A DNA stretch of 44,459 bases from a virus, in IMG/VR virus record IMGVR_UViG_3300010300_000001. One strand, written 5' to 3'. Positions 13,780 through 38,629 of this stretch are shown piece after piece (within the stretch, counting starts at the first letter, position 1; every line of letters begins with the position of its first letter). The position numbers and the translations under genes are program-made. The notes under the pieces were generated by a model that saw only the letters and a program-made list of their open reading frames with translations, was not told where the DNA came from and did no database searches.

Positions 13780-14607
13780 ATGGTGTTGGGATCATTGTTT
13801 GGGAAAGACGGTCTAGACCTCTTCGGCCAAGGCGCGCAAGAAAAGGCCAACAAGGCCAATTTGCAGCAGCTCAAGAACATCCTCAATGAATTGGGGTATG
13901 GTCCCGACGCAGACCCATATTCGGCCTATGCCCAAACTACGGCCCTGTACGGTGATGCCGCTCAGGGACTGAAGAATCTGACTGGTAGCGCGTTCAGAAC
14001 AATTGGCAGGGGCCGTAGTGTTGGCCAGGCCACGTTCAAGGAGTCCATCGCGGCGCTCGAAGCCGGGTTTGCTCAAGGGCAGCAGGGCCTGCAAGACTCG
14101 ATTGCCGCCACCATTGAAAGCCAAGTTGCCATGCAGAAGCAGGCCATGGCCGCAGCGGCGCAGCAGGGTATGGGTAGTGGCCTACGCGGCACGCCGCAGG
14201 GTGCGCAGATGCGGGGTCTAATCGCCGACGCTACGCGCTCGAGCTCGCAGGCATTTGCTGACCTAGCCAGCCAGAGGGGCGCGTTGGGCGCGCAACAAGG
14301 CCAGATGATGGGCCAGGCGTACCAGCAGTTTGGCCAGGACCAGATGGCCAGTTACGCGCAGCAGGCACAGTTGCAGCAGAACCTTGGCACGCAACTAGCG
14401 CAGCTATACAGCAACCAAGCACAGGCTTACACGGACATAGCCGCCTTGCGTGCAGATGCTCGGAGCGGCTATCAGCACAAAGCTGGCCCGTCGCCTCTTA
14501 GTCAGATCGGACAGCTGGCCGGCGGCATTGGCGCTATGGCTATAGGGTTCGGGGGGCTCGGGGGAGCAGGAGCCGCGGGAGCAGCAGCCGGGGCAGCAGG
14601 AGCGTAG
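13780..14607 (+). CDS. Gln/Ala-rich internal virion protein candidate with a Gly/Ala hydrophobic C-terminus
   Basis: AGGAGG 6-7 nt upstream of the ATG. The C-terminus GGIGAMAIGFGGLGGAGAAGAAAGAAGA is glycine-zipper-like. Confidence 0.4.
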   Translation: MVLGSLFGKDGLDLFGQGAQEKANKANLQQLKNILNELGYGPDADPYSAYAQTTALYGDAAQGLKNLTGSAFRTIGRGRSVGQATFKESIAALEAGFAQGQQGLQDSIAATIESQVAMQKQAMAAAAQQGMGSGLRGTPQGAQMRGLIADATRSSSQAFADLASQRGALGAQQGQMMGQAYQQFGQDQMASYAQQAQLQQNLGTQLAQLYSNQAQAYTDIAALRADARSGYQHKAGPSPLSQIGQLAGGIGAMAIGFGGLGGAGAAGAAAGAAGA

Positions 14608-15700: not shown

Positions 15701-18700
15701 ATGGCGACAGTCCAAGAGCCTCAGGACTTTACTGCGTTTGCTGACCGCTACTGGCAGGTCAGGGGCAGTGGCGGCCCTATTGGTGATGAGCAACTTCGTC
15801 CGCTGCTGGACGAGTTTGGCTTGCCGTACTGGTCTGGCATGGAGGCGGCGCTAGACGAGGGCGTCGGCAGGACCAAAGACTTTCGGACTGTTGTTGAAGA
15901 ATCGGAGCTGGCTGATTACCTGCCGTTCTTCGCTGGGGCGGCTCAGGTTGACGAGCTTCTTCAGATCAGAAGCGCAGCGAATGCGGTAGCCGAGGGCACC
16001 GCTACGCAAGAGCAGGAAGATGTGGTTATCCGCTACATGGTGGATATGGCCACGCCTGGCACGTGGGGCGGCCAAGTTGCTTCGCTGCTGGTTGACATGC
16101 CTGCATTCATGGGTGAGTTTGCAGCTAGTGGCGGCGTTGCATCTTTGCTGAAAACGGGCGGCAAGAAGGTTGCGGGTAAGCTGCTTCGAGAGACCATTGA
16201 CCAAGCGGCGCAAAAGCAGGCGGCCGGTGGCGTGATGAAATCGCTGGCCAAGCGGGGCGTCAACGTCGGTACTCACTTTGGCGTTCAGATGGGGCTTGGT
16301 GGAGTCGGCGGGCAGCGCATCATGGCCAGCACGCTACAGCGCACGCTGGGCCAGGCGGGCATGGTTTTGGATGAGAACCAAGCTGGCGAGCTCGAGGTGC
16401 TGATGAGCAGCACTCTGCCGCAGATCGAGGAGTCGCTCGACATTGGTATCACCGACTACGCCATTGAGGTGGCGTCCGAGATGAGCGGCGGCGCTATTGG
16501 CAAGGTCGTGCCTATCGACAAGCTGACCGGCATGGTGCTGCGAGGCATCCAGGCGCGTGCATTTGCCAAGGGAGCTCAAAAGTACGGCGTGGACAAGGCC
16601 ATGAACTTCCTGGCCAAGTCTGGGTGGAACGGCCCAATGAACGAGGTCTTGGAGGAGGTAGCCGGCAACGCAATGCGTGCAGCTGCCCCGAACCTCGAAG
16701 AGACTGCCGATGACATCATCCCGTCGTGGGAAGAGTTCACGGCAATGTACGTCGGCTTTGCGGTTCCGGGTCTGGCCGGCGGTGCTCTTGGGTTAGGGAG
16801 TGACTCAATGACCAGCGGGCCCGGCAAGCTGCCTAAGGGCGCAGCCCGATTTGAAACCGCCGAAGAGGCTGAGCAGGCCGGCCAGCGCATGGGCCTTGTC
16901 GAGCCTGTCGCATCGGAGTCGGCCGATGGCTTTGGCCTGCGGCGATACGCAGACGGACCCCTGGTAAGCGAGCAGGAGGTAAGTGCGCGCGTTCCGGCCC
17001 GGGCCCCGGCCCCCGACGCTGACGTGGACGCTGACGCTGAGCCAGGAACTGTAGATGCCGAGGTTGTAGATACTAAGGCGCCGCCCGCGGAAGAGCTCTC
17101 GGAGGAGGACGAAGACTTCCTGCTACAGCCGGAATACGAAGATTCGGATGTTCTGTACCAGCAGCTTGATGCTGGCGCGGAGGGTGAGTATCGCCGGGAG
17201 CGCGCGGCCGTGGTCTTTGATGAAGCTGAGCGGTACGCATCGGCCTCGGGGGAGCGCGCATACGTTGTCACGGACCCAAGCAACAGGGCTCTAAACTACG
17301 CGAGTCGCCAGGAGGCAATCGACCTGGTGCAGTCTGGCCAGGGCAAAGTCCTGGCCGTGCTCGAGCCTAGCCGCGAAGCTGAGCCTGCGCGCACAATCCT
17401 TCGCGACGCCCAGCAGGTGTGGGGGGCTAACGCGACCATTGTTGAGCCGAATCTGGAGCGCGAAGACGTGCGCGCAGCGCAAGAGCTGGCTAAGCGCGCC
17501 GGCGTGCGGTTTGTGATGGTTGATCCCGGCGAGGGCGCTGAAGACGCTCCGCTGGGCGCCTCGGCTCGCGTTGGGACAATTATGGTGAACGCGCGCAACA
17601 AGCCGCCGGCCGACGAGATTGCCGCGCATGAGCTTGTGCATGAACTGCGCCGCAGCAACCCGGAGCTCTTTGACCAGCTTGTCGATGTCCTTCAGCGCAC
17701 CGCCGGGGAGCGCATCGAAGAGGCGCGCGGCAGCCGGGATATGTCGGACGAAGAAGCGATAGCTCGGTACGCGGAGCCGCTCGCCAAGCTGATGCGCCGA
17801 ATGGGGACGCCACAGGGCCGTAAGCTGCTAAGGGACATTGCCCTTGAGCAACCGAGGCTGTTTGACAAGATTATTGACACTGTCCGCCGCATCCTGGCCA
17901 AGATCGGCCTTGTGCAGTCTCCGGTTATGGAGCGCAAGCGGCTGCGCATGCAGGAGCAGCTGGCCGATCTGGGCGAGCGCGTCACGCAGGAAGATGTGCG
18001 CGCCGCGCGATTGCTGCACGACTCGCTGACCTTTATTGGCAAAGCGCGCCTAGCCGGTTTGCTGACGGGCGACGAGCAGGGCGAGGTGAAGCTGCGCGAG
18101 GCTTACCTGGAGGAAGATCCTGACCGCGCCTTACGCTATCGCGACGACGACATGCTGGGGCAGAGCTGGGCGGAAGACAAAGAGCGCAAGCTGATTCTTG
18201 CGGACGGCACCGAGATCCCGTTTCGCTACAGAGTCGTCAATGCCAGCGACCTGCTGCCTAGCCATGACGCACGCAGAGGGTTTAGGCAGAACCCGGGCGG
18301 TGATAAAAACGAGCGCACGTATCACATTGAGAGCCAGTCAAAGGCGTCGCGCAAGAACGTCAGGGATATTGCCAGCGACCCGCAGCCGGAACGCATCTTC
18401 AATACCGCGCCAGACCCCAACACCGGGCCGCCTATCGTGACCCTAGATGGGGTTGTGCTGGGCGGCAATGCGCGCACCATGGGCTTGCAGCTGCTGTACC
18501 ACAATGCGTGGGAAAAGCAGGAGAACGTGGACGCCGCTGAACGCGTGGCACAAGCGGCGGTTCAGTTTGCCGCACGCGAGATGGGCGAAGAGGCCGAAGC
18601 TGTGGCTATTGAGCTGGAGCAACCCGTCATTGTTAGAGAGCTCCAGATCGCCACCATCCCCGGCGCGCTGTCGCGCGAACTAAACAAGGATGCCGCGGCG

Positions 18701-21700
18701 CCGCGCACACCGTCTGTGGACGCCGTGTCTCGCGGCTCTAAGGTGTCGGAGCAGGCCGCGCAGATGATCGCCCAAACCATTGGCGAGGGCACTCTGGGCG
18801 ATGTCCTAAACAGTCGCTCCAAAACCGCGTCGATGCTTAGCGCGCTGGTCAAGTCCGGCGCCTTCGACGAGGCTGAAATTGAGTCACTCATGGAGGGCCA
18901 GAGTGGCCTGCTGACTAAGGCCGGCCGCGAGCTGGTTGAAAAAACCATCATTGGCTCGCTTGTCACGGACGTGCAACGTCTGTCGGCTTTGCCTGCAAGT
19001 GCGCGAGGCAAGATGATTCGGTCGCTGCCGTCGCTGATGCGCCTGTCGGCAAGCTGGCCGCAGTTCAAGCATCACCTGGCGGCCATGTTCGATGGGCTGG
19101 CCACGATGCGCGGGGCCGACACTAATCTGGCAACGGAGGTTGACCAGACTAGCCTAGAGGACGAGCCGTGGAAGCGCGACATGGTGGCCGTCGCGCTGCT
19201 AAGCGAATTCATGGGCCGGGGGCCCAAGTCCTGGAACGAATTTGCCAAGGACCTGGTGACGGCCGTTACCGAGGCCAACATGCAGCAGGGCGCCATGTTT
19301 GGCGAGCCTGTGGCGGCTGATCCGGTAGAGGCGCTGTTGAAGCTGGTTGGCGATACACCGATGGGGCGCCGGCTTGCGCAGGCCAGCAACTTTGACCCGA
19401 CCGTTCAAATGCAAGAGGCCGAGGCGGCCCCGGAGGCGGCCCCGGAGGCGGAGGCCGAGGTTGACGCGCCTGCCGCCGAAGAGCCTGCTGCCGAAGAGTC
19501 CGTTGCCGCCGAACTGCCGCAGGTGCCGGCCAGAAAGCGGCGCTACTCGCCTGCCACTGAGCAAATGGCCGACGCGCTCAGGCAGCTCGCGCTGGAGCCG
19601 GAGTTGGTTGCCGGCAGGTCGTTTGGCCGCCTTGAAGATGCAGACATTGCATTCCTGGCTCGCCAGGCGGCTGCGGCCGTGGCTGAAGAGTGGGGCACGT
19701 CTGAGTTTGTGGAGTTCGCTACAGAGCTTGCCACAAAGCATTCTCAGATCGACTTCAACACGGCCATAGCTTTTATCCATGGCGTTGACGCCCTGGCCCG
19801 CTCTGCGGGATCGCAACTGCCTGGCTTTGATGTAAGCGGCACCATTGAGGCCATGCTGAGCTCGGTGGCTGTGGGGCGCGAGCGCTCTGAGCTCGAGACC
19901 GCTGGCCTGGTGGGCAACTACGTCAGGACCACGCTGCAAGCGGAAATGGAGTCCCGTCTCGGGGGCGAGCAGGAAGCCGATGCCGAGGCCCGCGAAGCGC
20001 CGGACCTTGCTTGGTTTGATGCTTCGCGCAAGAGCCCAGCGTTCTCGCAGCTAGGCGAGCTTGCGGACGAGCAAGATGGCGTTCGCAAAGGCGACGTGGT
20101 GGTGGTGCTTGACGGCACCCGCATGCGCATTGATCGGGCAAGCACGGTCAACCGTGACCGGGACGTTATGCGCTACGATAGCGGCGAAGGCCGCATCGAA
20201 GGCACGGAAGGCTCGTTTAGCCCTGGGAGCAAGCGGCCTGTGCGCCGCAACATGCAGCAGCCCGTGCTAGTTATTCCCAAGCGCTTTGTGGACAACGACG
20301 CGTACCTTGCGCTGTCTACAGGCGACAAGCGGCCGGCTGTAGATACAAGCAGCCAGGAGGCGTACGAGCGCAGCGTGGACGACGCGATGAACTTCATTGC
20401 AAACAACTTGCTGCGCGAACCGTCCAAGGCTCACCGCAAGGCCGACCGGGAAACTCTACTCAATCTGCGCAACGAGCTCGCTGGCCAGCAGGCCGCAGCC
20501 CCTGAGGCGGCTAAGCCGGCGGCAGACGCAAGCTACGAGCAGATTGAGCGCGAGTACCTGCAAAGCATTCGTGATGCGCTGGGCGTCGATGAGCAGCAGG
20601 CGGCCGTGCTGTCTTACCTAATGGATTCAATGGGCCTCGACCGCAGCACCATTGACTTTATGCGAGGCAGCACGCCAGACCCCCGCTTGCTCAACCAGCG
20701 AGTGTGGCATGGCTCAAGCGCGGCGTTTAGCAGGTTCGACACCGGGTTTATTGGCACCGGCGAAGGCGAGCAAGCCTATGGGTGGGGCCTGTATTTTGCG
20801 TCGCGCAAATCGGTTGCGGAATGGTATCGCGTACAGATTGCGGGTCGCGGAAAGGTAGATCAGCCGCACCTGCTTTTGCAGCAGCGCACCAGGAGCGACG
20901 AGCCTGGCGCAGTTGTTTATAACTATGAAGAGCTTCGCTTCCTCGGCCAGCGCATTCAGGACGCGTGGCGGGAGTGGTTCAGAGCCGCCAGCCAGTCGGA
21001 GACGGGCCCCCCTAGCGCAATGGAGCAGATGGATTGGCTCAACCGCGCGTTGAAGTCAATGCTTGCCGATGCGGAGGCTGAGCTTGCGCGGCAGCGAGCC
21101 GGCGGCCCGAACACGTCGCCAGTGCTTTTGCGCGCAGCCGAGAGAATCGCTGGCAGAATGCGCGATGTCGTCAACGGCACTAATGACGTTGGGTTTGAGG
21201 TGACGCTGGCTGGTCATAGAGGGCAACTGTACGAGGTCGAGCTCCATCCGGCCGAGAGCCAGTATTTGCTCTGGGAGGCAAACGCCTCAGGCCGTTTCTA
21301 TCTCGGTGGTGGAAAACAGAGTCGCCGGGTGCAGACCGCGCTTCAGCCGATTGTCGAGCTTGTGTTTACAAGCCAGGGGCGTCGCGTGCCACGCTACCTT
21401 AGTGGAGAAGAGTTGTACAAGGAGCTGGTCTCCTACTTTGAGCAGAGGCCGCTGCCCAAAGGCCAGTCTGCGCAAATGGCAGCGTCGCTCAAGCTACTTG
21501 AATCGGGTGTGCGCGGCATCAAATACGTAGACGGGGTAAGCCGGAAGAAAGTGGGCCCGCTCCACTACAACTACGTAGTTTTCGACGCGGCAGACACGCG
21601 AATGACGCGTTTCTTCCAGCAGGGCAACGAAGTGCAGGGGCAGGTTGAGTTGGCCCAGGATGGCCGCGCAATCATCACTGGCTTCGAATCTGCCAACTTC

Positions 21701-24700
21701 AGTACCGGCGTCCATGAGATTGCGCACGTAGCTCGCCGCCGCCTGGTCAACCGCGAGGTGCCAGCCAGCGAGCGCGAAGGCATTACGTCGCAGGACATCC
21801 TAGAGGCCGAAACGTGGTGCGGCGTCGAGGACGGCAACTGGACTGAAGAGGCCGAGGAAAGGTTTGCCCGCGGCTTCGAGAAGTACCTGATTGACGGCAA
21901 GGCGCCGAACGCGCAGCTGCACGCGATGTTCCGCGTCATTGCCCAGTGGATGCGTCGGCTGTACGAGCATGTGCTGACCCGCACGGCCGGCACGCCGTAC
22001 GAGGTCAAGCTGACCCCCGAAATGACTCGCGTGTATGACGCTCTGGTGACGCGGGGCCAGTACACCGGCCCAGAACAGGAGGGCGAGGTTCATGGCCCTG
22101 TCAAGGAGGTCGATGGAGTCAGGCCAGTTCGGTGGGTTGGAGGCAACGTGGATGTGGCGTACAACCGCCGCTACGACATTGTTCACCGCACGTGGAACAA
22201 GGACCCGCAGAAACGTAACACGATCATCTACGTGTTCGACGTTGACCCGTCGCGCAACTACTCGCCGGCCGACGTGTATCGAATCGCCTACACCAGCGGC
22301 ATGATCCCCAAGGGCGGTGGCAGCACAGGCGCCGAGGAGATTCAGACCCCGCACGGATTTTATGTCCGCCGGCAAAAAACCAACCGTGGGCTCAAGAACG
22401 ATTGGGTGCTGAATCCTGAGTTCCAAGAGGAAGATGCGGCGACTGAGGCTGCCGCGCCGGACGCCGAGGGCCTGGCCGGAAGCGAGGCAGACCCCCAGCC
22501 TGATGGCGGGCAGGATCTGAGTCGGTGGTTTGAGCGGCGAAGAAAGCAGCAGATTGATTTTCTGCGGCCGTTCATCGACGCCGTGGTTGAAGACTTCATC
22601 GGCACCTTGCCCGAAAAGTCTCGCGCCAGTGCCCGACAAGCGCTTAGCGGCACAACTTTCAGCAGCGACTTGGCCGTGGGTGATCGCGTTGTGGCTGCTG
22701 CGGCCTTTCGTGGCTACCAGTACGTAGACACGTACCCGGATGGGCCCGCCGATGCCCCGGCGCTTTACAGGGACGGGATGGTTGTTGCCGACCGCAACAA
22801 CTACACCGCGACGGGCATGAAGCTATTCGCCTACATTGCCAGGCAGCGCACCCGCGAGCTCGAGGAGGCCATTGCGGGCGCCCCTAGCTTCTGGCGCGAA
22901 GGGGCAATCGAGGTCGCGCAGCCGGGGTACAGGGTGGTTGGTCTAGTTGACCAAAAGACGCATGAGCTCCAGCAAGACGGAAGCTGGCTGGAGATTGACC
23001 CAGACGCTGAGTCCTACACGGGCCTAGAGCTTCCTGCGCGCCCTGAGGGCCTGCCTGACTGGCACCCGCCGCTAAACGAGCACGACGCGTTTGGCGATAT
23101 GACCCGGCCCGCTGAGCCTGAAATGATCGGGCCGGTGATGCCGGAGGATGAACGCCGGGCTCTGGAAGCTGCGCAAATCCTGATTGAGCGCGAGCGCCGC
23201 AAGCGCCGTAAGCTGCCGCCGGGCGAGCAGTCAAACCTCTTCGGCCCTGGCGAACCCGTTGACCTCGACCCGCCTAGCGATTCTGGCGGCGATCGTGGCT
23301 TGCAGCCGCCGGCTTCGTTTGAGGGCGGGCCCCGGCCCGGACCGGAGGACGTGGAGGGCGTGCGCCGCTCGTTTGCTTTGGGCGCGCAGCCCAGGGTCAA
23401 GCGCGCAAACGTCAGTGGCGACCCGAACGTGCGCAACTACGTGCGCGCCAGCGACGTGCAGATGGGCCGCAAAGGCGAGTACATGGCCAGCATCAAGCAG
23501 GCCGAAAAAGACGCGACTCGCATGCTCGAGGAGATGGGGGAAGAAGCCTTTGTTGAAAACTTCCTGACCAGGGCCCGCGAGGGAGTGCTGCACGATCAGG
23601 TGGAGTTCCTTGCAGCCCGACGCATTAGCGCCAACCTGATCAGAGATGCCCTGGGCATGGGGGGCACAGACAGGCATGCGCGTGCCATTGAGTTCATGTG
23701 GGCGTACCGTGCCGCGAGGGGCCAGGTGGCTCGTTCGCTTGGCATGGTGCGCGACGTGTTCCCTCGTACCGCACGCGAGCAGCTGGCCGATGTCTTGGCC
23801 ATGCCTAGCCAGCGAGTGCGCCGCCGGTTCCTGAACCTGGAAAAGAAGCGCCGCGAGCTGCGAGAGAAGGAGCGCGCACAGGCCAGCGAAGCCAGTCGCA
23901 AGCGCCTGCGAAAGGAGCTCGAGCGCATTGAGCGCCAGATCGACGCAGAGCTGAAGCGCGAGTCTGAGCGCATGCAGAAAGCGCTGGAGAAGCTGCAAGA
24001 AGATGGGTTGAACCCCGAGACCGTGATTGAATCCGACCTTATGGATCCCAACACGCGCGGCCGTATCGCCAAGGCTATTGCTGAGGCCAGGTCGAACAAG
24101 TGGGATTGGTTCTTGGCATACCAGTACAATGCAATGCTGTCGTTTGCCGGAACGCACGCGCGCAACATTGCCGGCAACACGCTAAACACTCTCCAAGAGC
24201 AGTTTGTGCAGCGTGGGGTTGAGGCGGGCATTGCCCGCGCCCTGCGGCTGTTTGCTCCTGGGAACTTTGAGGCGGCGCCGAAGTTTGGCGAGTTCAAGGT
24301 AATGGCCCAGATGCTGCCGGAGGCGTTTATGCAAGGCGCCCTGAACGGGTGGCTGGGCTACAAAAACAACGTCAGCGCCACGGCCCTGTACTTCCAAGCC
24401 ATGGGCATCGAGGTGCAGGACATGAGCCGTATCGAGCAGGACATTGCGCGGCAGGTGGGCAGCGGAAAGCTGCTGTACCTTGACTACCTGGGCACCCGCC
24501 TGCTGCAAGGCATGGATGACTGGGCCAAGACGTTCGTGGCTATCATCGAGATGCACGCCCGCTCGTATCGCGAGGCAGTCAACATGGGGCTCAAGAATCC
24601 CAAGGACATTGAGAAGCAAATGCGCATCTTCATGCTCGACGTGCAGCACCCGCTGCATCAAGAGGCGTGGACTGCGGCGCTCAAAACTGCGTTCCAGTTG

Positions 24701-26032
24701 CCGCCGGGCGAGTTCACTACCGGCTTGCTGAACCTGCGCAACAAGGCTGACTCAGCGTGGGATGTCCCGATGGGCACTCTCATGTTCCCGTTCGTGAACA
24801 CGCCGACCCAAATCTTCCAAGCGGGCCTGCGCAAAATCCCGCCGTCCAAGCTGATTCAGATGGCTGTGCGAGCCGTGCGCACCGTCAAGGCTGCCCGAGC
24901 CGATGAAGGCGCCGAAGATGTCGCCAAGGGGCGCACCGTGTACACGGGCGCGGAAGGCCAGCGGCAGTTGGTTGAGGATCTGGCCGATTTGGTGATTGGT
25001 GTCGGCGTGTTCTGGACCGTCATTGCCCTACTTGCTGGAGACGACGACGACCCGCGCCCGAAGATTACTGGTTCGCTGAAGCCGTGGGGGTCAGAGCGGG
25101 AGCTCCAGTACCGCGCTGCGCCGGCAATGTCGGTGCGCTTTGGGGACAGTTACTACTCGTATGCCGGGCTCGAGCCCCTTGCCACGTATGCGGCGCCGGT
25201 CGTTGACGCAGCAGAGCGCTGGCTGGGTGCTGTAAATGGCGGAACTAAGGAGCAGATCCTTGCTGCCAACACTAACGTGCTCAACTCCATCGTCGGTCTG
25301 GTTCGAGACAAGACCTACCTCCAGGGCTTTGGCGAGCTGGTGGACTTGGTGCAGTCTGGAGGCAAGTCACAATCGCTTGCAGATTTCATGTCCGACACGT
25401 TCTTCACGCGAATGGTGCCCAACGTCATTCGCGGAACGGCCAGAGAGTCGGACGAGTACCTGCGCCTAAGCCGCACCGCAGAAAAGTCGCTGCTGGGCCG
25501 CACGCTCAACGTAGACAAGCTGTTGCCTGTGCCTCCGCGAGTTGCGCGCTACCTGGGCATTGACCCTGCGCCGCCCAAGCGGGATATCTGGGGCCGCCCC
25601 ATTCCTCGAGGCGTGCAGATTGACTGGTCGTTTGGCGGGCTTGCCGGCCACCTGATGAAGGAGGCCGTGGGCCCCAAGAAGATGAACCCGGTGATGAAGG
25701 CCGACCTGGCCATCATGGCCTGGAACAGTATGGTGGAGCGCGGAGAGGCGATTGATCCCCGGACAGGGGACGTTGCAGAGCCGCTAAAGTTTGCTGGTAA
25801 GCGCGTCGGGCAGAACTGGTCGTCCGAAGAGGTTGACTTCGTAATGCGCGAAGGCGGCGGGCGGGCTCAGCGCGCTATCCAGGGGCTTGTTATTCGAGAC
25901 GTATCCAATCCCACGTGGTACGAAATGCAGGCGATTCGGAAGATACTGGATAAATCGTATGACGCTGCCATGAAGCAGGTGCGCGCGCAGCGCCGTGTGC
26001 GCAAGGCCCAGGAGCTCTCAACCACCAGGTAG
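15701..26032 (+). CDS. Giant multidomain (polyvalent-type) protein, 3443 aa, probably virion-borne
   Basis: Single uninterrupted ORF of 10,332 nt with a GGAAGGA Shine-Dalgarno. Motifs: HELVH (nt 17627-17641); ParB-like PPIVTLDGVVLGGNARTMGL (nt about 18431-18487); WHGS...GWGLYFAS...LHYNYVVFD (nt 20705-21595); HEIAH (nt 21713-21727) followed by EERFARGFEKYLIDGKAP; basic coiled coil (nt about 23828-24010); transmembrane-like LVIGVGVFWTVIALLAG (nt about 24983-25039). Confidence 0.85.
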   Translation: MATVQEPQDFTAFADRYWQVRGSGGPIGDEQLRPLLDEFGLPYWSGMEAALDEGVGRTKDFRTVVEESELADYLPFFAGAAQVDELLQIRSAANAVAEGTATQEQEDVVIRYMVDMATPGTWGGQVASLLVDMPAFMGEFAASGGVASLLKTGGKKVAGKLLRETIDQAAQKQAAGGVMKSLAKRGVNVGTHFGVQMGLGGVGGQRIMASTLQRTLGQAGMVLDENQAGELEVLMSSTLPQIEESLDIGITDYAIEVASEMSGGAIGKVVPIDKLTGMVLRGIQARAFAKGAQKYGVDKAMNFLAKSGWNGPMNEVLEEVAGNAMRAAAPNLEETADDIIPSWEEFTAMYVGFAVPGLAGGALGLGSDSMTSGPGKLPKGAARFETAEEAEQAGQRMGLVEPVASESADGFGLRRYADGPLVSEQEVSARVPARAPAPDADVDADAEPGTVDAEVVDTKAPPAEELSEEDEDFLLQPEYEDSDVLYQQLDAGAEGEYRRERAAVVFDEAERYASASGERAYVVTDPSNRALNYASRQEAIDLVQSGQGKVLAVLEPSREAEPARTILRDAQQVWGANATIVEPNLEREDVRAAQELAKRAGVRFVMVDPGEGAEDAPLGASARVGTIMVNARNKPPADEIAAHELVHELRRSNPELFDQLVDVLQRTAGERIEEARGSRDMSDEEAIARYAEPLAKLMRRMGTPQGRKLLRDIALEQPRLFDKIIDTVRRILAKIGLVQSPVMERKRLRMQEQLADLGERVTQEDVRAARLLHDSLTFIGKARLAGLLTGDEQGEVKLREAYLEEDPDRALRYRDDDMLGQSWAEDKERKLILADGTEIPFRYRVVNASDLLPSHDARRGFRQNPGGDKNERTYHIESQSKASRKNVRDIASDPQPERIFNTAPDPNTGPPIVTLDGVVLGGNARTMGLQLLYHNAWEKQENVDAAERVAQAAVQFAAREMGEEAEAVAIELEQPVIVRELQIATIPGALSRELNKDAAAPRTPSVDAVSRGSKVSEQAAQMIAQTIGEGTLGDVLNSRSKTASMLSALVKSGAFDEAEIESLMEGQSGLLTKAGRELVEKTIIGSLVTDVQRLSALPASARGKMIRSLPSLMRLSASWPQFKHHLAAMFDGLATMRGADTNLATEVDQTSLEDEPWKRDMVAVALLSEFMGRGPKSWNEFAKDLVTAVTEANMQQGAMFGEPVAADPVEALLKLVGDTPMGRRLAQASNFDPTVQMQEAEAAPEAAPEAEAEVDAPAAEEPAAEESVAAELPQVPARKRRYSPATEQMADALRQLALEPELVAGRSFGRLEDADIAFLARQAAAAVAEEWGTSEFVEFATELATKHSQIDFNTAIAFIHGVDALARSAGSQLPGFDVSGTIEAMLSSVAVGRERSELETAGLVGNYVRTTLQAEMESRLGGEQEADAEAREAPDLAWFDASRKSPAFSQLGELADEQDGVRKGDVVVVLDGTRMRIDRASTVNRDRDVMRYDSGEGRIEGTEGSFSPGSKRPVRRNMQQPVLVIPKRFVDNDAYLALSTGDKRPAVDTSSQEAYERSVDDAMNFIANNLLREPSKAHRKADRETLLNLRNELAGQQAAAPEAAKPAADASYEQIEREYLQSIRDALGVDEQQAAVLSYLMDSMGLDRSTIDFMRGSTPDPRLLNQRVWHGSSAAFSRFDTGFIGTGEGEQAYGWGLYFASRKSVAEWYRVQIAGRGKVDQPHLLLQQRTRSDEPGAVVYNYEELRFLGQRIQDAWREWFRAASQSETGPPSAMEQMDWLNRALKSMLADAEAELARQRAGGPNTSPVLLRAAERIAGRMRDVVNGTNDVGFEVTLAGHRGQLYEVELHPAESQYLLWEANASGRFYLGGGKQSRRVQTALQPIVELVFTSQGRRVPRYLSGEELYKELVSYFEQRPLPKGQSAQMAASLKLLESGVRGIKYVDGVSRKKVGPLHYNYVVFDAADTRMTRFFQQGNEVQGQVELAQDGRAIITGFESANFSTGVHEIAHVARRRLVNREVPASEREGITSQDILEAETWCGVEDGNWTEEAEERFARGFEKYLIDGKAPNAQLHAMFRVIAQWMRRLYEHVLTRTAGTPYEVKLTPEMTRVYDALVTRGQYTGPEQEGEVHGPVKEVDGVRPVRWVGGNVDVAYNRRYDIVHRTWNKDPQKRNTIIYVFDVDPSRNYSPADVYRIAYTSGMIPKGGGSTGAEEIQTPHGFYVRRQKTNRGLKNDWVLNPEFQEEDAATEAAAPDAEGLAGSEADPQPDGGQDLSRWFERRRKQQIDFLRPFIDAVVEDFIGTLPEKSRASARQALSGTTFSSDLAVGDRVVAAAAFRGYQYVDTYPDGPADAPALYRDGMVVADRNNYTATGMKLFAYIARQRTRELEEAIAGAPSFWREGAIEVAQPGYRVVGLVDQKTHELQQDGSWLEIDPDAESYTGLELPARPEGLPDWHPPLNEHDAFGDMTRPAEPEMIGPVMPEDERRALEAAQILIERERRKRRKLPPGEQSNLFGPGEPVDLDPPSDSGGDRGLQPPASFEGGPRPGPEDVEGVRRSFALGAQPRVKRANVSGDPNVRNYVRASDVQMGRKGEYMASIKQAEKDATRMLEEMGEEAFVENFLTRAREGVLHDQVEFLAARRISANLIRDALGMGGTDRHARAIEFMWAYRAARGQVARSLGMVRDVFPRTAREQLADVLAMPSQRVRRRFLNLEKKRRELREKERAQASEASRKRLRKELERIERQIDAELKRESERMQKALEKLQEDGLNPETVIESDLMDPNTRGRIAKAIAEARSNKWDWFLAYQYNAMLSFAGTHARNIAGNTLNTLQEQFVQRGVEAGIARALRLFAPGNFEAAPKFGEFKVMAQMLPEAFMQGALNGWLGYKNNVSATALYFQAMGIEVQDMSRIEQDIARQVGSGKLLYLDYLGTRLLQGMDDWAKTFVAIIEMHARSYREAVNMGLKNPKDIEKQMRIFMLDVQHPLHQEAWTAALKTAFQLPPGEFTTGLLNLRNKADSAWDVPMGTLMFPFVNTPTQIFQAGLRKIPPSKLIQMAVRAVRTVKAARADEGAEDVAKGRTVYTGAEGQRQLVEDLADLVIGVGVFWTVIALLAGDDDDPRPKITGSLKPWGSERELQYRAAPAMSVRFGDSYYSYAGLEPLATYAAPVVDAAERWLGAVNGGTKEQILAANTNVLNSIVGLVRDKTYLQGFGELVDLVQSGGKSQSLADFMSDTFFTRMVPNVIRGTARESDEYLRLSRTAEKSLLGRTLNVDKLLPVPPRVARYLGIDPAPPKRDIWGRPIPRGVQIDWSFGGLAGHLMKEAVGPKKMNPVMKADLAIMAWNSMVERGEAIDPRTGDVAEPLKFAGKRVGQNWSSEEVDFVMREGGGRAQRAIQGLVIRDVSNPTWYEMQAIRKILDKSYDAAMKQVRAQRRVRKAQELSTTR

Positions 26033-34199: not shown

Positions 34200-34446
34200 A
34201 GTCTGGCCCCTCGCAGAGCCAGTGGCGCAGTAGCGGAGGAAGGTGCGGTGCCCGCTAAAGCGCCAAAGGGATGACTGCCGAACTATAGGGGCCTGCGCGC
34301 CAGTCCACAAGCACTAGTGCGAGTCCGAAAACCGCATTGGCGGCCTGCCGAACCGCATGGCTGATCAGGGGAGGTAGGGCAAGGCCGCTTGGGTTTCCGG
34401 GACCTGGAAGAAAAAGGAAGCCTTGTGCGGCCTCGCCCTTGAAGGT

Positions 34447-34480
34447 GCGGCCCGGCATTGCCCCCCGGCAGCCGGGCCGC
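34447..34480 (-). terminator. 10-bp GC hairpin about 40 nt downstream of the minus-strand gene ending at 34521
   Basis: GCGGCCCGGC, a 14-nt loop, then GCCGGGCCGC. Confidence 0.45.
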
Positions 34481-34520
34481 TTGCGCAACCGCTATCCCCG
34501 TTGAAGCGGCTTGCTCTAGG

Positions 34521-34889
34521 CTACTCCACCAGGCCGGCCACTTCCAAGACGCGCTTTTCTACGTCGTACAGCACGGCCTTCACGTCGGGACGGTCGCCTA
34601 CCTGCTTTTCCATGGCGGCAACGCCGGCTTTGATAGCTGCGCGGGCAAGTCGCATTTCCTGATCGGTCCAGACGGGCGCGGCCTCTGGTGCCGTTTGCGC
34701 CGGGCTGGGCGCGGCCTCTAGATGCCCCGGCGCCGCGGCCCCTCGCCGCTGGGCCTCTGCCGCAACCGCGGCCTTTGTGTCGGGATACAGGTCCCGCTCG
34801 GGCTGCATCAGCCAGGACAGATAGCTGTCCTCGAGCTCTGTAATCGGGCGCCCCTTGTACTTGCCAAAGGGCATAACGAACGCGTCCAT
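34521..34889 (-). CDS. DUF3820-like protein (FGKYKG motif). Start uncertain: 34889, 34874 or the GTG at 34916.
   Basis: MPFGKYKGRPITELEDSYLSWL is the DUF3820-type signature. Confidence 0.55.
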   Translation of the reverse strand: MDAFVMPFGKYKGRPITELEDSYLSWLMQPERDLYPDTKAAVAAEAQRRGAAAPGHLEAAPSPAQTAPEAAPVWTDQEMRLARAAIKAGVAAMEKQVGDRPDVKAVLYDVEKRVLEVAGLVE

Positions 34890-34966
34890 GCGTTGCACCT
34901 TGCTCCGCGCTGGCACGGGCGCGGCCTCTAGTCATCGTGCGGCCTGTGCCGAAACCGCAAACGGCA

Positions 34967-34992
34967 GGGGAGGCGCCCCAGTGGCGCCCCCC
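34967..34992 (-). other. Strong GC hairpin inside the 35032-34916 spacer
   Basis: Plus strand GGGG-A-GGCGCC ccagt GGCGCC-CCCC (one bulged A). Possible intra-operon attenuator or stabiliser. Confidence 0.4.
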
Positions 34993-35031
34993 CCTAGACC
35001 GTTGCAGTTTACCTACGCGGCCTGGCTACCG

Positions 35032-35700
35032 CTACCGCTCGACCTCGAAGCGGCTGCACTGCCACCACCTGTGGTTTGTAAGCAGGTCTTGCGCCGTCTC
35101 TAGCGCAATCTGGCAGGCCCCAAACGTCGCCAAGTCCACTCCCTCGAGCGGCGTACGGACAATGGCCGGCAGATCCCTGGCGACCCACAAGGGCGGCAAC
35201 TGGCCGAGCTTGGCGTACGCGTGGGCAATATCCCAGCTCAAGTCCATCCCGCCGCCGGTGAGCGCTAGATAGTGCGCGTCCCCGACCGGATCATCGGGCG
35301 CCGTCACCAGGCACACCGAAGTATCAATTAGAGCGCACTGGGCCTTACGCTCATCCATATCGAAGAGCTCGATCGGGTAGCGGTAGTTCATGGCCGGGCG
35401 CCAGCTATCGTCTTTCAGGGCCAGCTCATCGGCCAATGCTTCTAGGTCGTGCTTGTGCATGTCGCGCAGCTCCTCGAGCGGCGCATCGTTAGACCGTTCG
35501 TAGATCCAATCTGCCAGGCGGCCCGGCCACATGCTTTCAAAGTCCGGCAAGATCTGCGCGTACTCGCCCTGCCGCTCGAGCGCGTGCCAGTCAGTCCAGA
35601 TTGAGTGCGACCAGAGGTTTGTAGCGTGCAGGCGTCCGAACAGCTCGTGGCACTTGTTGCGCGCGTCTTGCAGCTTGACCGCGTCGGTTTGGGTTTCCAT
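35032..35700 (-). CDS. Hypothetical early protein (222 aa)
   Basis: Long ORF directly downstream of hammerhead copy A. Contains a conserved-looking YLALTGGGMDLSWDIAHAY segment. No family named. Confidence 0.65.
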   Translation of the reverse strand: METQTDAVKLQDARNKCHELFGRLHATNLWSHSIWTDWHALERQGEYAQILPDFESMWPGRLADWIYERSNDAPLEELRDMHKHDLEALADELALKDDSWRPAMNYRYPIELFDMDERKAQCALIDTSVCLVTAPDDPVGDAHYLALTGGGMDLSWDIAHAYAKLGQLPPLWVARDLPAIVRTPLEGVDLATFGACQIALETAQDLLTNHRWWQCSRFEVER

Positions 35701-35715
35701 GTTTCGTCATCCGTT

Positions 35716-35770
35716 GGGGTTTCGGCCTTGCCTGGGCCTCGTCAGGGGAGCGCAGCACGCTCTCGACCCC
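35716..35770 (-). ncRNA. Hammerhead ribozyme motif, type III topology (copy A)
   Basis: Minus-strand RNA: GGGGUC / GAGAGCG-UGCUG-CGCUCCC (stem I, one A-C mismatch) / CUGACGA / GGCC-CAGGCAA-GGCC (stem II) / GAA / ACCCC (stem III, pairing with GGGGU). Every invariant core position is present, and the cleavage triplet is GUC. Confidence 0.8.
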
Positions 35771-35778
35771 TTGCGGGG

Positions 35779-36030
35779 TCAGGTGTCCGGGTACTTGTTC
35801 AGGCGGACGGCCTCCGCCGGCCTCGTTACCGTTTTGGCCAGGCGCGGCGCGTCCACGCTGGCGAGCTCACTATCCACGAACGGCACCAAGTGTATATCCG
35901 CCGCCGCGGCCTGTAGCGCCTCTGCCAGCGCGCCCGCTCCGGCCACGTTCAGGTAGAACGTGGGCAGGTTTGGCACGCTCACAGCTACCGCATCCCGGAA
36001 CCGGTGCACGCGCCAGGCCCTAAAACCCAT
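35779..36030 (-). CDS. Hypothetical early protein (83 aa)
   Basis: The ATG at 36030 overlaps the upstream stop by 11 nt. GC3-rich frame. Its UGA stop lies inside the 5' arm of the GCAA hairpin of hammerhead copy A. The longer track ORF 35779..36243 overlaps the neighbouring gene and is unlikely. Confidence 0.5.
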   Translation of the reverse strand: MGFRAWRVHRFRDAVAVSVPNLPTFYLNVAGAGALAEALQAAAADIHLVPFVDSELASVDAPRLAKTVTRPAEAVRLNKYPDT

Positions 36031-36397
36031 GGCTGATAAACCCCCGCCAGCCGTTGGGCGCGTTCTCCAGCCAATCCGCGAGGGCATCATACCCAGCGAG
36101 CCAAGCTTCAATCCGGCCGTGGATGGTGTAATCGGCCACGGCCTCCCATGCGTCCACACCTGGCGGCAGAATGATCCGGCACCATTCATGTTGGGCGCCG
36201 GCTTTCGTTCGGTAGAACCAGCCGAGCTCCGCGCAGCCGACAAACGATATCCGGTCGAGGGCCTTTGCGGCGCTCTGCATCTTTTCGGGCGCGTCCCCGC
36301 CGTCGTCTACCTCGATAAACCCATCGGGGCCGCTGCTCTTGAACATATACTCAACTAGCGCCTGAACGTGCCAGGGAATGTCCTTGTGGCTACGCAT
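36020..36397 (-). CDS. Hypothetical early protein (125 aa)
   Basis: The ATG at 36397 overlaps the upstream stop by 8 nt. The track start at 36481 would run through the neighbouring gene. Confidence 0.55.
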   Translation of the reverse strand: MRSHKDIPWHVQALVEYMFKSSGPDGFIEVDDGGDAPEKMQSAAKALDRISFVGCAELGWFYRTKAGAQHEWCRIILPPGVDAWEAVADYTIHGRIEAWLAGYDALADWLENAPNGWRGFISHGF

Positions 36398-36806
36398 TGG
36401 ACGCGGCCTCCGGCTGCTCGGCGTCTGCCAGGGCCTCGGCCTCGGCAAACTTGGCCGCGGCCACCTCCTGCAATCGTTCAAAATATGCGACCTGAAGGCC
36501 GGCCAGCTCGTATGCGGCGAGCTCGAGCGCCTGCCCTAGCTCCCCGGCCAGGTCGGCAATCATGTCGTGAAACAGGGCCTGGCGCTCGTAGTGGCTGCTG
36601 TTGAGCTCTTCGCAGTCGGCGTCCGGCTCGACGTTGTGCACGGTGCCCAGCTCGTCCACGTATCCGCCCTCGCCGATGCGGTGCACCTGCCAGCTATCGA
36701 TAGACGTGAAGGCGCGGCCCCCAACGGTCCACGCGTTGCGGAGCGCTCCCGATATGGTTCTGGCGCGTCCCCAGGTGTGGGGCGCGATAACGATGTAATG
36801 GTGCAT
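36390..36806 (-). CDS. Hypothetical early protein (138 aa)
   Basis: ATG at 36806 (the track uses a TTG one codon upstream). GAGGA lies about 9 nt upstream. First gene after hammerhead copy B. Confidence 0.6.
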   Translation of the reverse strand: MHHYIVIAPHTWGRARTISGALRNAWTVGGRAFTSIDSWQVHRIGEGGYVDELGTVHNVEPDADCEELNSSHYERQALFHDMIADLAGELGQALELAAYELAGLQVAYFERLQEVAAAKFAEAEALADAEQPEAASNA

Positions 36807-36843
36807 CAAGGGTCATCCTCTCGGCCTGGTAGTGTTCTGACGT

Positions 36844-36895
36844 GGCGTTTCGGCCGTCTCGGCCTCGTCAGCGGGGCAGACCAGCCCCGGACGCC
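36844..36895 (-). ncRNA. Hammerhead ribozyme motif, type III topology (copy B)
   Basis: Minus-strand RNA: GGCGUC / CGGGGC-UGGUCU-GCCCCG (stem I) / CUGACGA / GGCCG-AGA-CGGCC (stem II) / GAA / ACGCC (stem III, pairing with GGCGU). It closely parallels the classic CUGAUGA-GGCC-GAAA-GGCC-GAA-AC minimal hammerhead. Confidence 0.85.
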
Positions 36896-36903
36896 TTGCG
36901 GCG

Positions 36904-37164
36904 TCACGGCTCCGCCTCCGCCTCCGCCGCCCGGTCCAGCCGCTCCTCTCGAGCTCGTATGTCTTCGGCAATCTGGCGAGCTAGGCCGCGGGCCAGCTTA
37001 TCGGCGAGCTCGCGCAGCCTGGCAGCAGCCTCGGGGGTGCAGTCGGGAGAGCTGGCGACCTCGCTTACGTGGCGGAGCTCGCACGGCCGGCAGAGCTGAC
37101 TCGGGCTATCGTAGTCGGCCAAGCTGGCGCCGCAGCTGCCGCAAACACTTTCGGGGTTGTTCAT
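36904..37164 (-). CDS. Small zinc-ribbon protein (86 aa)
   Basis: The ATG at 37164 forms an ATGA overlap with the upstream stop. CGSC...CRPC motif and an acidic helical tail. Its UGA stop lies inside the 5' arm of the GCAA hairpin of hammerhead copy B. Confidence 0.6.
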   Translation of the reverse strand: MNNPESVCGSCGASLADYDSPSQLCRPCELRHVSEVASSPDCTPEAAARLRELADKLARGLARQIAEDIRAREERLDRAAEAEAEP

Positions 37165-37331
37165 CGGTTGATTCGGACGGCCTGGCCGCCCTCGGTGTCG
37201 GTGTCGTCGGGGAATACGTCGTACTGGAGAGCGGCCGCCCGGCGGTCTAGCCATTCCTCATAGGCTTCCCAGAGCTTTGCGCACTCCGGGCAAGGGAAGG
37301 GGCCTTCCTCGAGATTGCAGCGGCAGCTCAT
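37161..37331 (-). CDS. Small Cys-rich protein (56 aa), below the ORF-track cutoff
   Basis: Hand translation gives MSCRCNLEEGPFPCPECAKLWEAYEEWLDRRAAALQYDVFPDDTDTEGGQAVRINR. GGAGG lies 4 nt upstream of the start, and there are ATGA overlaps at both ends. Confidence 0.55.
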   Translation of the reverse strand: MSCRCNLEEGPFPCPECAKLWEAYEEWLDRRAAALQYDVFPDDTDTEGGQAVRINR

Positions 37332-37567
37332 CGCGCCTCCGTAATGGTTGAGACCGTCAGGCTCAGGTTGCCGGCGTGGTCGTGCACGGTTACGGTGTGC
37401 TCGCCCAGGTGCGTGCGGTAGCTGCTGCCGTACTTGCCCTCAATCGTGTGCCAGTCCAACGGCCGGCGGGCCAGCTTTGTAACGTGGTCCTGGAACTGGG
37501 CCAGGGTCCAGCCTTTGCCGCGCCAGCAGTCCCGGAGCTGCCGGACCTCTTCTGCGTAGGTTCGCAT
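37328..37567 (-). CDS. Hypothetical first gene of the 37.6-34.5 kb early operon (79 aa)
   Basis: ORF starting next to the divergent non-coding region 37568-37681. Confidence 0.6.
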   Translation of the reverse strand: MRTYAEEVRQLRDCWRGKGWTLAQFQDHVTKLARRPLDWHTIEGKYGSSYRTHLGEHTVTVHDHAGNLSLTVSTITEAR

Positions 37568-37681
37568 TGCTATCCCTTTCGGTAGTGTGTAGCGGCGGAG
37601 CTCACCGCGAGCCCTGCCAGGTGGCTAAGTTACCATCGGCAGCCAAGCCTCACGCAATCAAAAAACAGCGGAGATTTCTAT

Positions 37682-38404
37682 ATGTGGAATGATGCCCAAA
37701 AACAGGAAGAGCCGGGCGGGCAGCCCGCGGACGCCTGGCTGGCTCTCGGCTTGGCCGGCCCGGACGACGAGCTGCCCGCCAACGTGGGCGAGCTGCTCCC
37801 GCCGCCGGCCGATGGACCAGCCCGGGGAGCTGATCGCTTGCGCGAGCTGCTGCCGGCCCTCGTGGCCCACCTGCGCGCCGGCGTGCCTACTCCCTCGGCT
37901 ACTCGGGCTCTCGGCTGCCAGGCCAGTTACCGATGGTGGCGCGAGCGAGCGGCGGAGGGACTCGAGCCCTACTGCTCGGCCCTCGCGTGCCTCGACCACG
38001 CGCGCTACCTGGCGGAGCTCGAGCTGCTGCAAGCGGTGAGGCGCGCGGCTCTGGGCACCCGGCGCAAGACCATCACGGTAGAAGAAGAGGGCCCCCACGG
38101 CCTGCGGCGCTCGGTCAAGCATATCGACGTGGAGCCGGACTGGCGGGCGGCGGCCTGGGCGCTCGAGCACACCCGGCAGGATACCTACGGCCTGGCGGCC
38201 GGGGAGGAGCTCGAGGCGGCGCAGGTAGACCCGCCGGCGATCATCATCGAGGGGCGAGCCGCGGATGCCCTGGCGGAGAGGCTTCGCCTCGGGCCTGGCG
38301 GGGACCAGCCGGCAGAGCTCGTCGGCGAGGGGCAGGAGCTCGAGCACCAGCAAGACGGCCAGGCGGACGGGCAGCGGCCGGCCAGGGGGGAGCAGCAGCA
38401 GTAG
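37682..38404 (+). CDS. HTH DNA-binding protein, small-terminase-like
   Basis: GGAG 7 nt upstream of the ATG. LRAGVPTPSATRALGCQASYRWWRE (HTH-like) and PDWRAAAWALEHTRQDTYG, a pattern common in small terminase or HTH phage proteins. The frame has strongly GC-rich third positions, unlike the two overlapping track ORFs. Confidence 0.45.
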   Translation: MWNDAQKQEEPGGQPADAWLALGLAGPDDELPANVGELLPPPADGPARGADRLRELLPALVAHLRAGVPTPSATRALGCQASYRWWRERAAEGLEPYCSALACLDHARYLAELELLQAVRRAALGTRRKTITVEEEGPHGLRRSVKHIDVEPDWRAAAWALEHTRQDTYGLAAGEELEAAQVDPPAIIIEGRAADALAERLRLGPGGDQPAELVGEGQELEHQQDGQADGQRPARGEQQQ

Positions 38405-38629
38405 GACGGCCAGCAGCAGCGGCCAGCAGGGTAGGCAGCCCGCGCGGCAACCGGGCCCGGAGTCCCGTTTCCTATAGGGGGGGGTGGATCGTTCCAGGTA
38501 GCCACTCCCCATCAAACCGGGTTGGGACTCCTACTGATCTCCCTGGGGCCACCACGCATATTTGCACACCTACCCAGCGGGGCCGTTTGTAAGCTGCCTA
38601 TTTTACACTTCTACCGGAGTAGTAGTTTC

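Follow-up and report, generated by a model that had tools for sequence, protein, structure and literature searches.

Two type III hammerhead ribozyme motifs, each overlapped by a competing upstream hairpin, in a small-gene operon of a tailed-phage-like genome

Hammerhead arrays that flank small phage genes have been described since 2011. In prophages, individual genes or short runs of genes are often bordered by several hammerheads, and when three arrays of this type were assayed in vitro as native transcripts of ~2 kb, cleavage took place at every site (Perreault et al. 2011, PMC3088659). In Desulfovibrio vulgaris, three type II hammerheads cleave in vivo (PMC8782182). The same phage association is stated in the review of De la Pena (PMC6155905) and by Weinberg et al. 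(PMC6765202), where the purpose of these elements is left unresolved and the leading idea is that a polycistronic mRNA is processed into pieces of differing stability or translatability. The subject of the present analysis is a viral DNA of 44,459 nucleotides (nt), IMG/VR record IMGVR_UViG_3300010300_000001, hereafter the window, to which all coordinates refer unless another locus is named. A complete type III hammerhead ribozyme had been predicted in one of its intergenic spacers. This motif, copy B (36844–36895, minus strand), is a genuine hammerhead motif that is conserved in relatives, and its anatomy, together with published related elements, indicates that it is probably a functional self-cleaving ribozyme that processes the operon mRNA. 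A further motif, copy A, lies 1.1 kb downstream in the same minus-strand operon and, on the same kinds of evidence, appears to be a second such ribozyme. The two copies add to a known class and do not constitute a new one.

Copy B is located on the same strand as the surrounding genes, as expected from the earlier assignment to the transcribed (minus) strand of the operon. Its parts, with gene lengths in amino acids (aa) and stem lengths in base pairs (bp), are as follows.

36904–37164, minus strand: upstream gene, whose 86-aa product contains CxxC twice (translation; the same gene is called in relatives)
36906–36904, minus strand: UGA stop codon of the upstream gene
36844–36895, minus strand: hammerhead copy B, type III (sequence read, descriptor match, RF00008, phage type III model R1, conservation)
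36895–36891, minus strand: stem III 5′ strand, GGCGU
36890, minus strand: C17
Between 36890 and 36889, minus strand: predicted cut, 14 nt after the UGA stop of the 86-aa gene
36889–36884, 36883–36878 and 36877–36872, minus strand: stem I (6 bp), formed by CGGGGC, loop UGGUCU and GCCCCG
36871–36865, minus strand: core CUGACGA (C3–A9)
36864–36860, 36859–36857 and 36856–36852, minus strand: stem II (5 bp), formed by GGCCG, loop AGA and CGGCC
36851–36849, minus strand: GAA (G12-A13-A14)
36848–36844, minus strand: stem III 3′ strand, ACGCC, of a 5-bp stem
36844–36855, minus strand: intact G strand GGCC-GAA-ACGCC (stem II 3′ strand, G12-A13-A14, stem III 3′ strand)
36807–36843, minus strand: 37-nt leader from the ribozyme to the next start codon, with a Shine-Dalgarno-like GAGAGGA at 36822–36816
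36390–36806, minus strand: downstream gene of 138 aa (open reading frame (ORF) list; homologues P0001 and P0002 in the same gene order)

Read 5′ to 3′ on the minus strand, the region runs UGA, CGCC, GCAA, GGCGU and C and then, past the cut, CGGGGC, UGGUCU, GCCCCG, CUGACGA, GGCCG, AGA, CGGCC, GAA and ACGCC. In agreement with the original prediction, every invariant hammerhead position is present by both sequence reading and a structural descriptor (H17 is not G), the cleavage triplet is GUC, and the cut falls between 36890 and 36889, 14 nt past the stop codon. Two details of that prediction require correction: the string it quoted begins at 36906 and not at 36905, and the spacer length of 94 nt holds when measured to a TTG at 36809, whereas it is 97 nt to the ATG at 36806, the start used by the gene calls in relatives. 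The pairs adjacent to the core are C-G (1.1–2.1), G-C (10.1–11.1) and A-U (A15.1–U16.1). The order of elements (cleavage site, CUGANGA, GAA) is that of type III: loops cap stems I and II, and the two ends of the motif pair to give stem III. This topology follows from the intact G strand on the 3′ side, and the sequence read, a targeted RF00008 scan, the descriptor and the R1 model agree on it. The strand upstream of the cleavage site could close stem III as well, in a hairpin termed P0, but lacks a GAA, and the complete core is obtained only through the type III connection. Relative to RF00008 (clan CL00010), the invariant core, the A15.1-U16.1 and G10.1-C11.1 pairs, the GUC triplet, the closed stems I and II and the open stem III are identical. 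In contrast, the window copies are very GC-rich, have loops unlike those of viroids and plants, which make up most of the model, and possess an upstream strand able to close stem III into a hairpin.

The descriptor (CUGANGA and GAAA; U16.1; any base but G as H17; stems I, II and III with no fewer than 4 bp each, the first two of them closed) is matched at exactly two sites in the 44,459-nt window, copies B and A, both on the minus strand, intergenic and in one operon, and at no site in 300 dinucleotide-preserving shuffles. In a targeted scan of 181 nt, copy B aligns to RF00008 over the full model length (positions 1–54) with 38.9 bits and E = 2e-7, a figure that becomes E ~5e-5 when scaled to the whole window. 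The anticipated Rfam match is thus significant in the targeted scan but lies below the gathering cut-off and is missed by default whole-window scans: at the gathering threshold no RF00008 match is returned from the window, and the whole-window E-value scan reports copy A only (30.1 bits, E = 0.015). A second covariance model, R1, was built from 19 type III hammerheads of unrelated IMG/VR phage contigs and run with filters off. It assigns 61.4 bits to copy B, 55.4 bits to copy A and at most 11 bits to the rest of the window. No type I hammerhead, the form with an open stem I (PMC10085705), was detectable in the window, and an Rfam E-value scan of the window detected no other ribozyme family.

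In copy A, the invariant hammerhead core is likewise complete. The following features were assigned around it.

35716–35770, minus strand: hammerhead copy A, type III, in a 78-nt spacer (RF00008 30.1 bits, R1 55.4 bits, descriptor match)
Between 35765 and 35764, minus strand: predicted cut of copy A
35780–35765, minus strand: P0 hairpin of copy A, GACCCC-GCAA-GGGGUC, overlapping the UGA stop (35781–35779) of the 83-aa gene (translation)
35765–36889, minus strand: putative 1,125-nt segment between both predicted cuts, with the 138-, 125- and 83-aa genes (from the cut sites and gene models)

On the minus strand, the operon reads 79, 56 and 86 aa, the 97-nt spacer with copy B, 138, 125 and 83 aa, the 78-nt spacer with copy A, 222 aa, a 115-nt spacer and 131 aa. 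The two hammerheads are therefore 1.1 kb apart, in intergenic spacers of 78 and 97 nt and on the sense strand of one operon, so that at least two sense-strand hammerheads flank phage operon genes. The locus shares with the published phage and prophage arrays (PMC3088659, PMC6155905) the presence of several hammerheads in the same orientation, short spacers and small, poorly conserved ORFs, and polycistronic mRNA processing is the role proposed for both. The published arrays were shown to cleave in vitro, whereas cleavage by the window pair is predicted, and here both members are of type III with a P0 hairpin. Most of 34 other phage type III hammerheads have a start codon (of an ORF of at least 50 aa) 10–22 nt past the ribozyme. 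Copy A, with 15 nt to the ATG, fits this layout exactly; copy B, with 37 nt to the start codon and the GAGAGGA Shine-Dalgarno sequence, fits it loosely. In several phage type III lineages, a stable, non-overlapping hairpin occurs within 30 nt upstream. The locus supports type III phage hammerheads as 5′ leaders of the downstream gene.

RiboJ-type insulators provide an engineered parallel. These consist of the type III hammerhead of the satellite RNA of tobacco ringspot virus (sTRSV), placed in a 5′ untranslated region and given an added 3′ hairpin that exposes the ribosome-binding site (RBS), and on cleavage the RNA context upstream is removed and a structured, defined leader with a 5′-OH remains. 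In both settings, a type III hammerhead is found just upstream of the RBS. In contrast to RiboJ, folding of the cut and uncut window RNA reveals no RBS-accessibility switch. This candidate function was rejected since the unpaired probability of the Shine-Dalgarno sequence changes little on cleavage (uncut versus cut, 0.59 versus 0.41 in copy B and 0.66 versus 0.64 in copy A).

Relatives of the locus were recovered through a large protein collection; use of two neighbouring proteins as IMG/VR queries gave none. Metagenome homologues of the 138-aa and 222-aa proteins are 74–100% identical and retain the gene order. Two related phage lineages, whose neighbouring proteins are 74–92% identical, carry both ribozymes at the same intergenic sites, and all contigs that bear homologues have both hammerheads at equivalent intergenic positions. 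In one relative, L242, 89 of 90 nt are identical across 36899–36810 and 60 of 60 across 35759–35700, and the adjoining coding sequence is about 75–85% identical. The leader at 36839–36810 is identical at 30 of 30 nt in both L242 and a second relative, L241. Across related metagenomic phages both spacers are 99–100% identical. Only three spacer substitutions occur over all haplotypes, each at an unpaired or mismatched position (the third base of the GCAA loop, leader base 36839, and position 1.2 of copy A, which remains a mismatch), and the invariant core bases are intact in every haplotype of both copies. As read from these alignments, the pattern shows both spacers to be under strong constraint.

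Comparison between copies reveals that sequence may change where pairing is kept. Stem I is formed by CGGGGC and GCCCCG in copy B and by GAGAGCG and CGCUCCC in copy A; by direct reading, this stem is wholly different among copy A, copy B and the hammerhead of an unrelated phage (L275), and is paired in each. At its third pair, stem III has C-G in copy B, where copy A has G-C. At the 3′ end of the operon (34400–35030), identity to L242 rises to ~96%, compared with about 75–85% over the rest, which indicates mosaic exchange between the phage lineages of the window and L242. An association of the ribozyme with the 222-aa gene family was also considered. Six loci with distant homologues of this protein (34–54% identity) have similar spacers in which neither Rfam nor R1 finds a hammerhead, and the ribozyme is therefore not tied to that family.

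The upstream sequence CGCC-GCAA-GGCG, which the original prediction had treated as a neutral flank, belongs to a hairpin of 6 bp, which masks the cleavage site and forms in competition with stem III.

36890–36905, minus strand: hairpin P0, GACGCC-GCAA-GGCGUC, 6 bp (minimum free energy (MFE) fold of the spacer, energies, covariation, identity to closed stem III hairpins)

In both copies, a perfect 6-bp P0 is made by the 16 nt that end at the cleavage site. Because its 3′ arm consists of the stem III 5′ strand plus C17, P0 and stem III are mutually exclusive. The first two bases of the 5′ arm are the GA of the UGA stop that ends the upstream gene, and the register is shared by both copies. In nearest-neighbour calculations, which exclude the tertiary stabilisation of the hammerhead fold, the P0 state has −32.7 kcal/mol and the hammerhead fold −27.9 kcal/mol in copy B, and the corresponding values in copy A are −25.6 and −20.1 kcal/mol. 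When the P0 5′ arm is removed from copy B, the hammerhead becomes the MFE structure. At the single position that differs between the copies, the 5′ arm, the shared strand and the stem III 3′ strand change together, and both pairings are kept. Because the internal stem III strand co-varies with the two P0 flanks, the idea that these flanks are the target-site duplication left by a mobile element was also rejected. The core CUGACG of copy B (36866–36871) is paired in the MFE fold with a downstream CGUCAG (36837–36842, minus strand). In L241 this helix is disrupted by a U-to-C change, copy A does not have it, and it is probably not meaningful.

Full overlap of P0 with stem III recurs in an unrelated phage (L275 7927–7990, plus strand; L276 2251–2314, minus strand), in which a P0 hairpin with the copy A sequence, GACCCC-GCAA-GGGGUC, is fused to a type III hammerhead. 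The open stem III of that element is weak (3 bp, a G-A mismatch and 1 bp) and far less stable than the closed hairpin, and how the element reaches an active fold is therefore a question. Its stop codon is located 3 nt upstream of P0. Across phage type III hammerheads, P0 was not found to be general: a test based on MFE folds gave no significant result, nor did a test for in-register hairpins after removal of the window lineage. A further motif (L324 3468–3524, minus strand) meets the full type III descriptor and has a P0-like hairpin, yet is located inside a 1,565-aa ORF. It was set aside as a third relative with P0 and is most likely a chance match, a case which illustrates that descriptor matches from very large collections need context.

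The origin of P0 is suggested by type II hammerheads. Hairpins identical to those of P0 close stem III in phage hammerheads of types I and II; among such closed hairpins, ACCCCGCAAGGGGUC is the commonest and ACGCCGCAAGGCGUC is also frequent. Type II hammerheads, of which 41 distinct examples were present in the fetched phage loci, are laid out 5′ to 3′ as GGCC, GAA, a closed stem III hairpin (ACGCC, GCAA, GGCGU), C, the stem I hairpin, CUGACGA and GGCC. The closest DNA relatives of copy B are type II hammerheads. One of these (L197) is 85% identical over 52 nt to window positions 36910–36861 by blastn, and another (L323) is 75% identical over 80 nt to the copy B region; no protein similarity was found elsewhere between the window and these two loci. 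In an alignment with both (A2), a candidate remnant of the type II 5′ strand is observed in the window.

36900–36911, minus strand: AGCC-GUG-ACGCC, resembling a decayed type II G strand; last codons and stop of the upstream gene (putative, from alignment A2 with L197 and L323)

In copy B, the GUG at the former GAA position supplies the UGA stop codon of the upstream gene. The 5′ strands, AGCC-GUG-ACGCC in copy B and CC-UG-ACCCC in copy A, have A13 and A14 replaced, and across other haplotypes, relatives and copy A the 5′ GAA position reads AUG, GUG or CUG. As judged from these bases, neither copy is a functional type II hammerhead. Relative to the phage type II elements (L197, L323, L287 and L124), the stem III hairpin, the cleavage site, the design of the stem I hairpin, the core and the stem II 5′ strand are alike, and the upstream cleavage product would end in an identical hairpin. 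In contrast, the window copies have lost the 5′ GAA and carry an intact GGCC-GAA-ACGCC on the 3′ side, which makes type III the active topology.

The mirror image of this arrangement is present in L323 (537–612, plus strand), where an intact type II 5′ strand, GGCC-GAA-ACGCC, is accompanied by a degenerate downstream GCC-GAA-ACaca. Two type II copies in L287 (minus strand) similarly combine an intact 5′ strand with a degenerate GCC-GAA-AC downstream of stem II. These arrangements suggest the existence of evolutionary intermediates in which each side of the hammerhead bears a GAA strand. Copies A and B would then be descendants of type II hammerheads in which the GAA strand was duplicated to the 3′ side and the 5′ original decayed into the end of the upstream gene, and would exemplify how one circular permutation can pass into another. 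The known hammerhead permutations are summarised in PMC10085705, in which, without an exhaustive search, such an intermediate was not found. In L003 (minus strand, ~3337–4719), four type II hammerheads and one of type III are present in the same operon, and different topologies can hence coexist in one transcript. Three to five hammerheads within 1–2 kb are observed in each of L003, L124, L128, L024 and L032.

On the preferred account, stem III would form by pairing of GGCGU with ACGCC, and the core would cut after C17, between 36890 and 36889. The upstream mRNA would then end in GACGCC-GCAA-GGCGUC with a 2′,3′-cyclic phosphate, and this 3′ end is expected to snap into a blunt P0 hairpin, the same end that a type II hammerhead would leave. 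Formation of P0 at this end would promote product release, block re-ligation and hinder 3′ exonucleases. The downstream mRNA would begin with a 5′-OH and the compact ribozyme body, 37 nt before the start of the 138-aa gene. Together, the two ribozymes would split the polycistronic transcript into three pieces, the middle one of 1,125 nt with three genes, which would be free to differ in stability or translation.

Several observations weigh against the reading of copy B as a functional ribozyme that processes the operon mRNA. Neither copy reaches the curated RF00008 gathering cut-off of 48.5 bits (38.9 bits for B, 30.1 for A), a threshold that is an operational annotation rule and not a biochemical definition, and R1 is biased toward the window copies, as its training set was retrieved by a pattern that shares the stem II GGCC...GGCC. 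The syntenic relatives are near-invariant, so that the covariation comes from one paralogous pair and one unrelated phage, with a single covarying pair each in stem III and P0 (in the latter, GC in four and CG in three). The sharp islands of identity could in principle result from mosaic recombination and not from selection. A tertiary contact between loop or stem I and loop or stem II is required for fast cleavage at physiological Mg; a Watson-Crick contact between loops I and II was not found above shuffled controls in copy A and ~25 phage type III hammerheads. In copy B, GUCU of loop I could pair with AGAC, which comprises loop II and its closing pair. Finally, P0 is favoured by ~5 kcal/mol in both copies, offers no toehold and is transcribed first. 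Efficient constitutive cleavage cannot be assumed in view of this stability: the naked RNA may cleave slowly, and the folding energies allow that P0 may hold the ribozyme off until it is opened.

This last point leads to an alternative in which the ribozyme is cis-blocked and gated by translation. P0 would form first and keep the hammerhead off until a ribosome terminating at the embedded UGA unwinds it; the freed GGCGU would pair with ACGCC, and only mRNAs with a translated upstream gene would be cut. Such gating is conceivable but considered unlikely. It is consistent with the greater stability of P0 and its presence in the MFE folds, with the hammerhead MFE fold of copy B deprived of its 5′ arm, and with a stop codon placed in the same register of the P0 5′ arm, 14 nt before the cut, in both copies. 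With the UGA in the ribosomal A site, the whole P0 5′ arm would be expected within the mRNA channel. Cis-blocked ribozymes are also known, such as the attenuator of the hepatitis delta virus (HDV) ribozyme and the engineered sTRSV and peach latent mosaic viroid (PLMVd) hammerheads (PMC3553993), and as in the window the 5′ strand forms first and competes with the active fold. In those engineered type III hammerheads, upstream blockers with no toehold inhibit strongly in vitro, co-transcriptionally by 44–93%, and their displacement is slow with a toehold of 0–2 nt (PMC3553993). The published blocker is removed by an added oligonucleotide, whereas the ribosome as a trigger in the window is a hypothesis. 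The copies, however, are paralogues, and the shared register may be inherited and not selected; the stop codon of L275 precedes P0 and is not inside it; in-register upstream hairpins show no enrichment among phage type III hammerheads outside the window lineage; and tertiary stabilisation of the hammerhead is outside the energy model. Retention of the type II stem III is a simpler account of P0. The combined proposal, that the copies are intermediates from type II to type III in which P0 is a built-in off-state opened by a terminating ribosome, so that cleavage is coupled to upstream translation, is correspondingly regarded as doubtful.

That copy B is a decayed relic or a chance match, in a spacer kept for hairpin sites of RNases or other proteins or for a DNA operator palindrome (GACGCC-N4-GGCGTC), is very improbable. 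Chance hammerhead-like matches do occur, as in L324, the Rfam score is under the gathering cut-off, and conservation extends over all 97 nt of the spacer, including 37 beyond the ribozyme. Against this, no match in 300 shuffles stands beside two intergenic, sense-strand sites in one operon, the invariant core is intact in all haplotypes of both copies, and stem I is completely different between the copies yet still paired. For an operator, the palindromes of the two copies differ at symmetric positions, which makes one DNA-binding protein for both unlikely, and the stem III 3′ strand, outside the palindrome, changes along with them. Equally improbable is circularisation, in which the excised 1,125-nt three-gene segment, with its 5′-OH and 2′,3′-cyclic phosphate, would be closed into a circular mRNA by an RtcB-type ligase of the host or through ligation by the ribozyme itself. 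The segment is flanked by two hammerheads of the same orientation, and hammerhead product chemistry suits RtcB. This possibility was raised for the prophage arrays by Perreault et al., who sought spliced or circular products and found none (PMC3088659). Moreover, GGGGU of copy A and ACGCC of copy B would meet in a central G-G mismatch, which disfavours a chimeric, ligation-competent hammerhead.

The wider window is tailed-phage-like. A match to a large terminase, with distant relatives in Streptomyces and Thermobifida phages, and a gene layout that includes long tail ORFs and an ORF of portal size identify it as a phage. A megablast search with 34500–38600 returned no close relative among deposited phages. 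No Pfam or PHROG match was found for the operon genes except the last (131 aa; PF12843, QSregVF_b). The neighbouring genes of the relatives include RecT, RusA and DUF3799, and an early operon is plausible. The third spacer of the operon (34917–35031, minus strand, between the 222-aa and 131-aa genes) contains a long GC-rich hairpin, GGGGGGGGCGCC-ACUGG-GGCGCCUCCCC, within a longer stem, followed by a U-containing tract. The fold has an energy of −72.7 kcal/mol over 136 nt. The spacer is identical to L242 at 87 of 90 positions, has no Rfam match and no hammerhead core, and could serve in attenuation, termination or processing. In the structural module, an ORF of 3,443 aa (15701–26032, plus strand) follows one of 1,601 aa (8713–13518); for a phage genome of 44 kb, its product is unusually large for the tail region. 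A weak Rfam match to flpD at 14301–14347 (plus strand; 26.4 bits versus a cut-off of 40, E = 0.057), within the ORF at 13780–14607, is probably due to chance.

The role of many phage hammerheads is unsettled (PMC6765202, PMC6155905), and this locus offers a clean, compact test case and not an answer. Two ribozymes bracket three small genes, the constrained nucleotides are given by natural relatives, and a hairpin lies over the stop codon. If gating by P0 proves true, the locus would show that control of a ribozyme by translation occurs in nature; should it prove false, the locus would still document how one hammerhead topology can turn into another.

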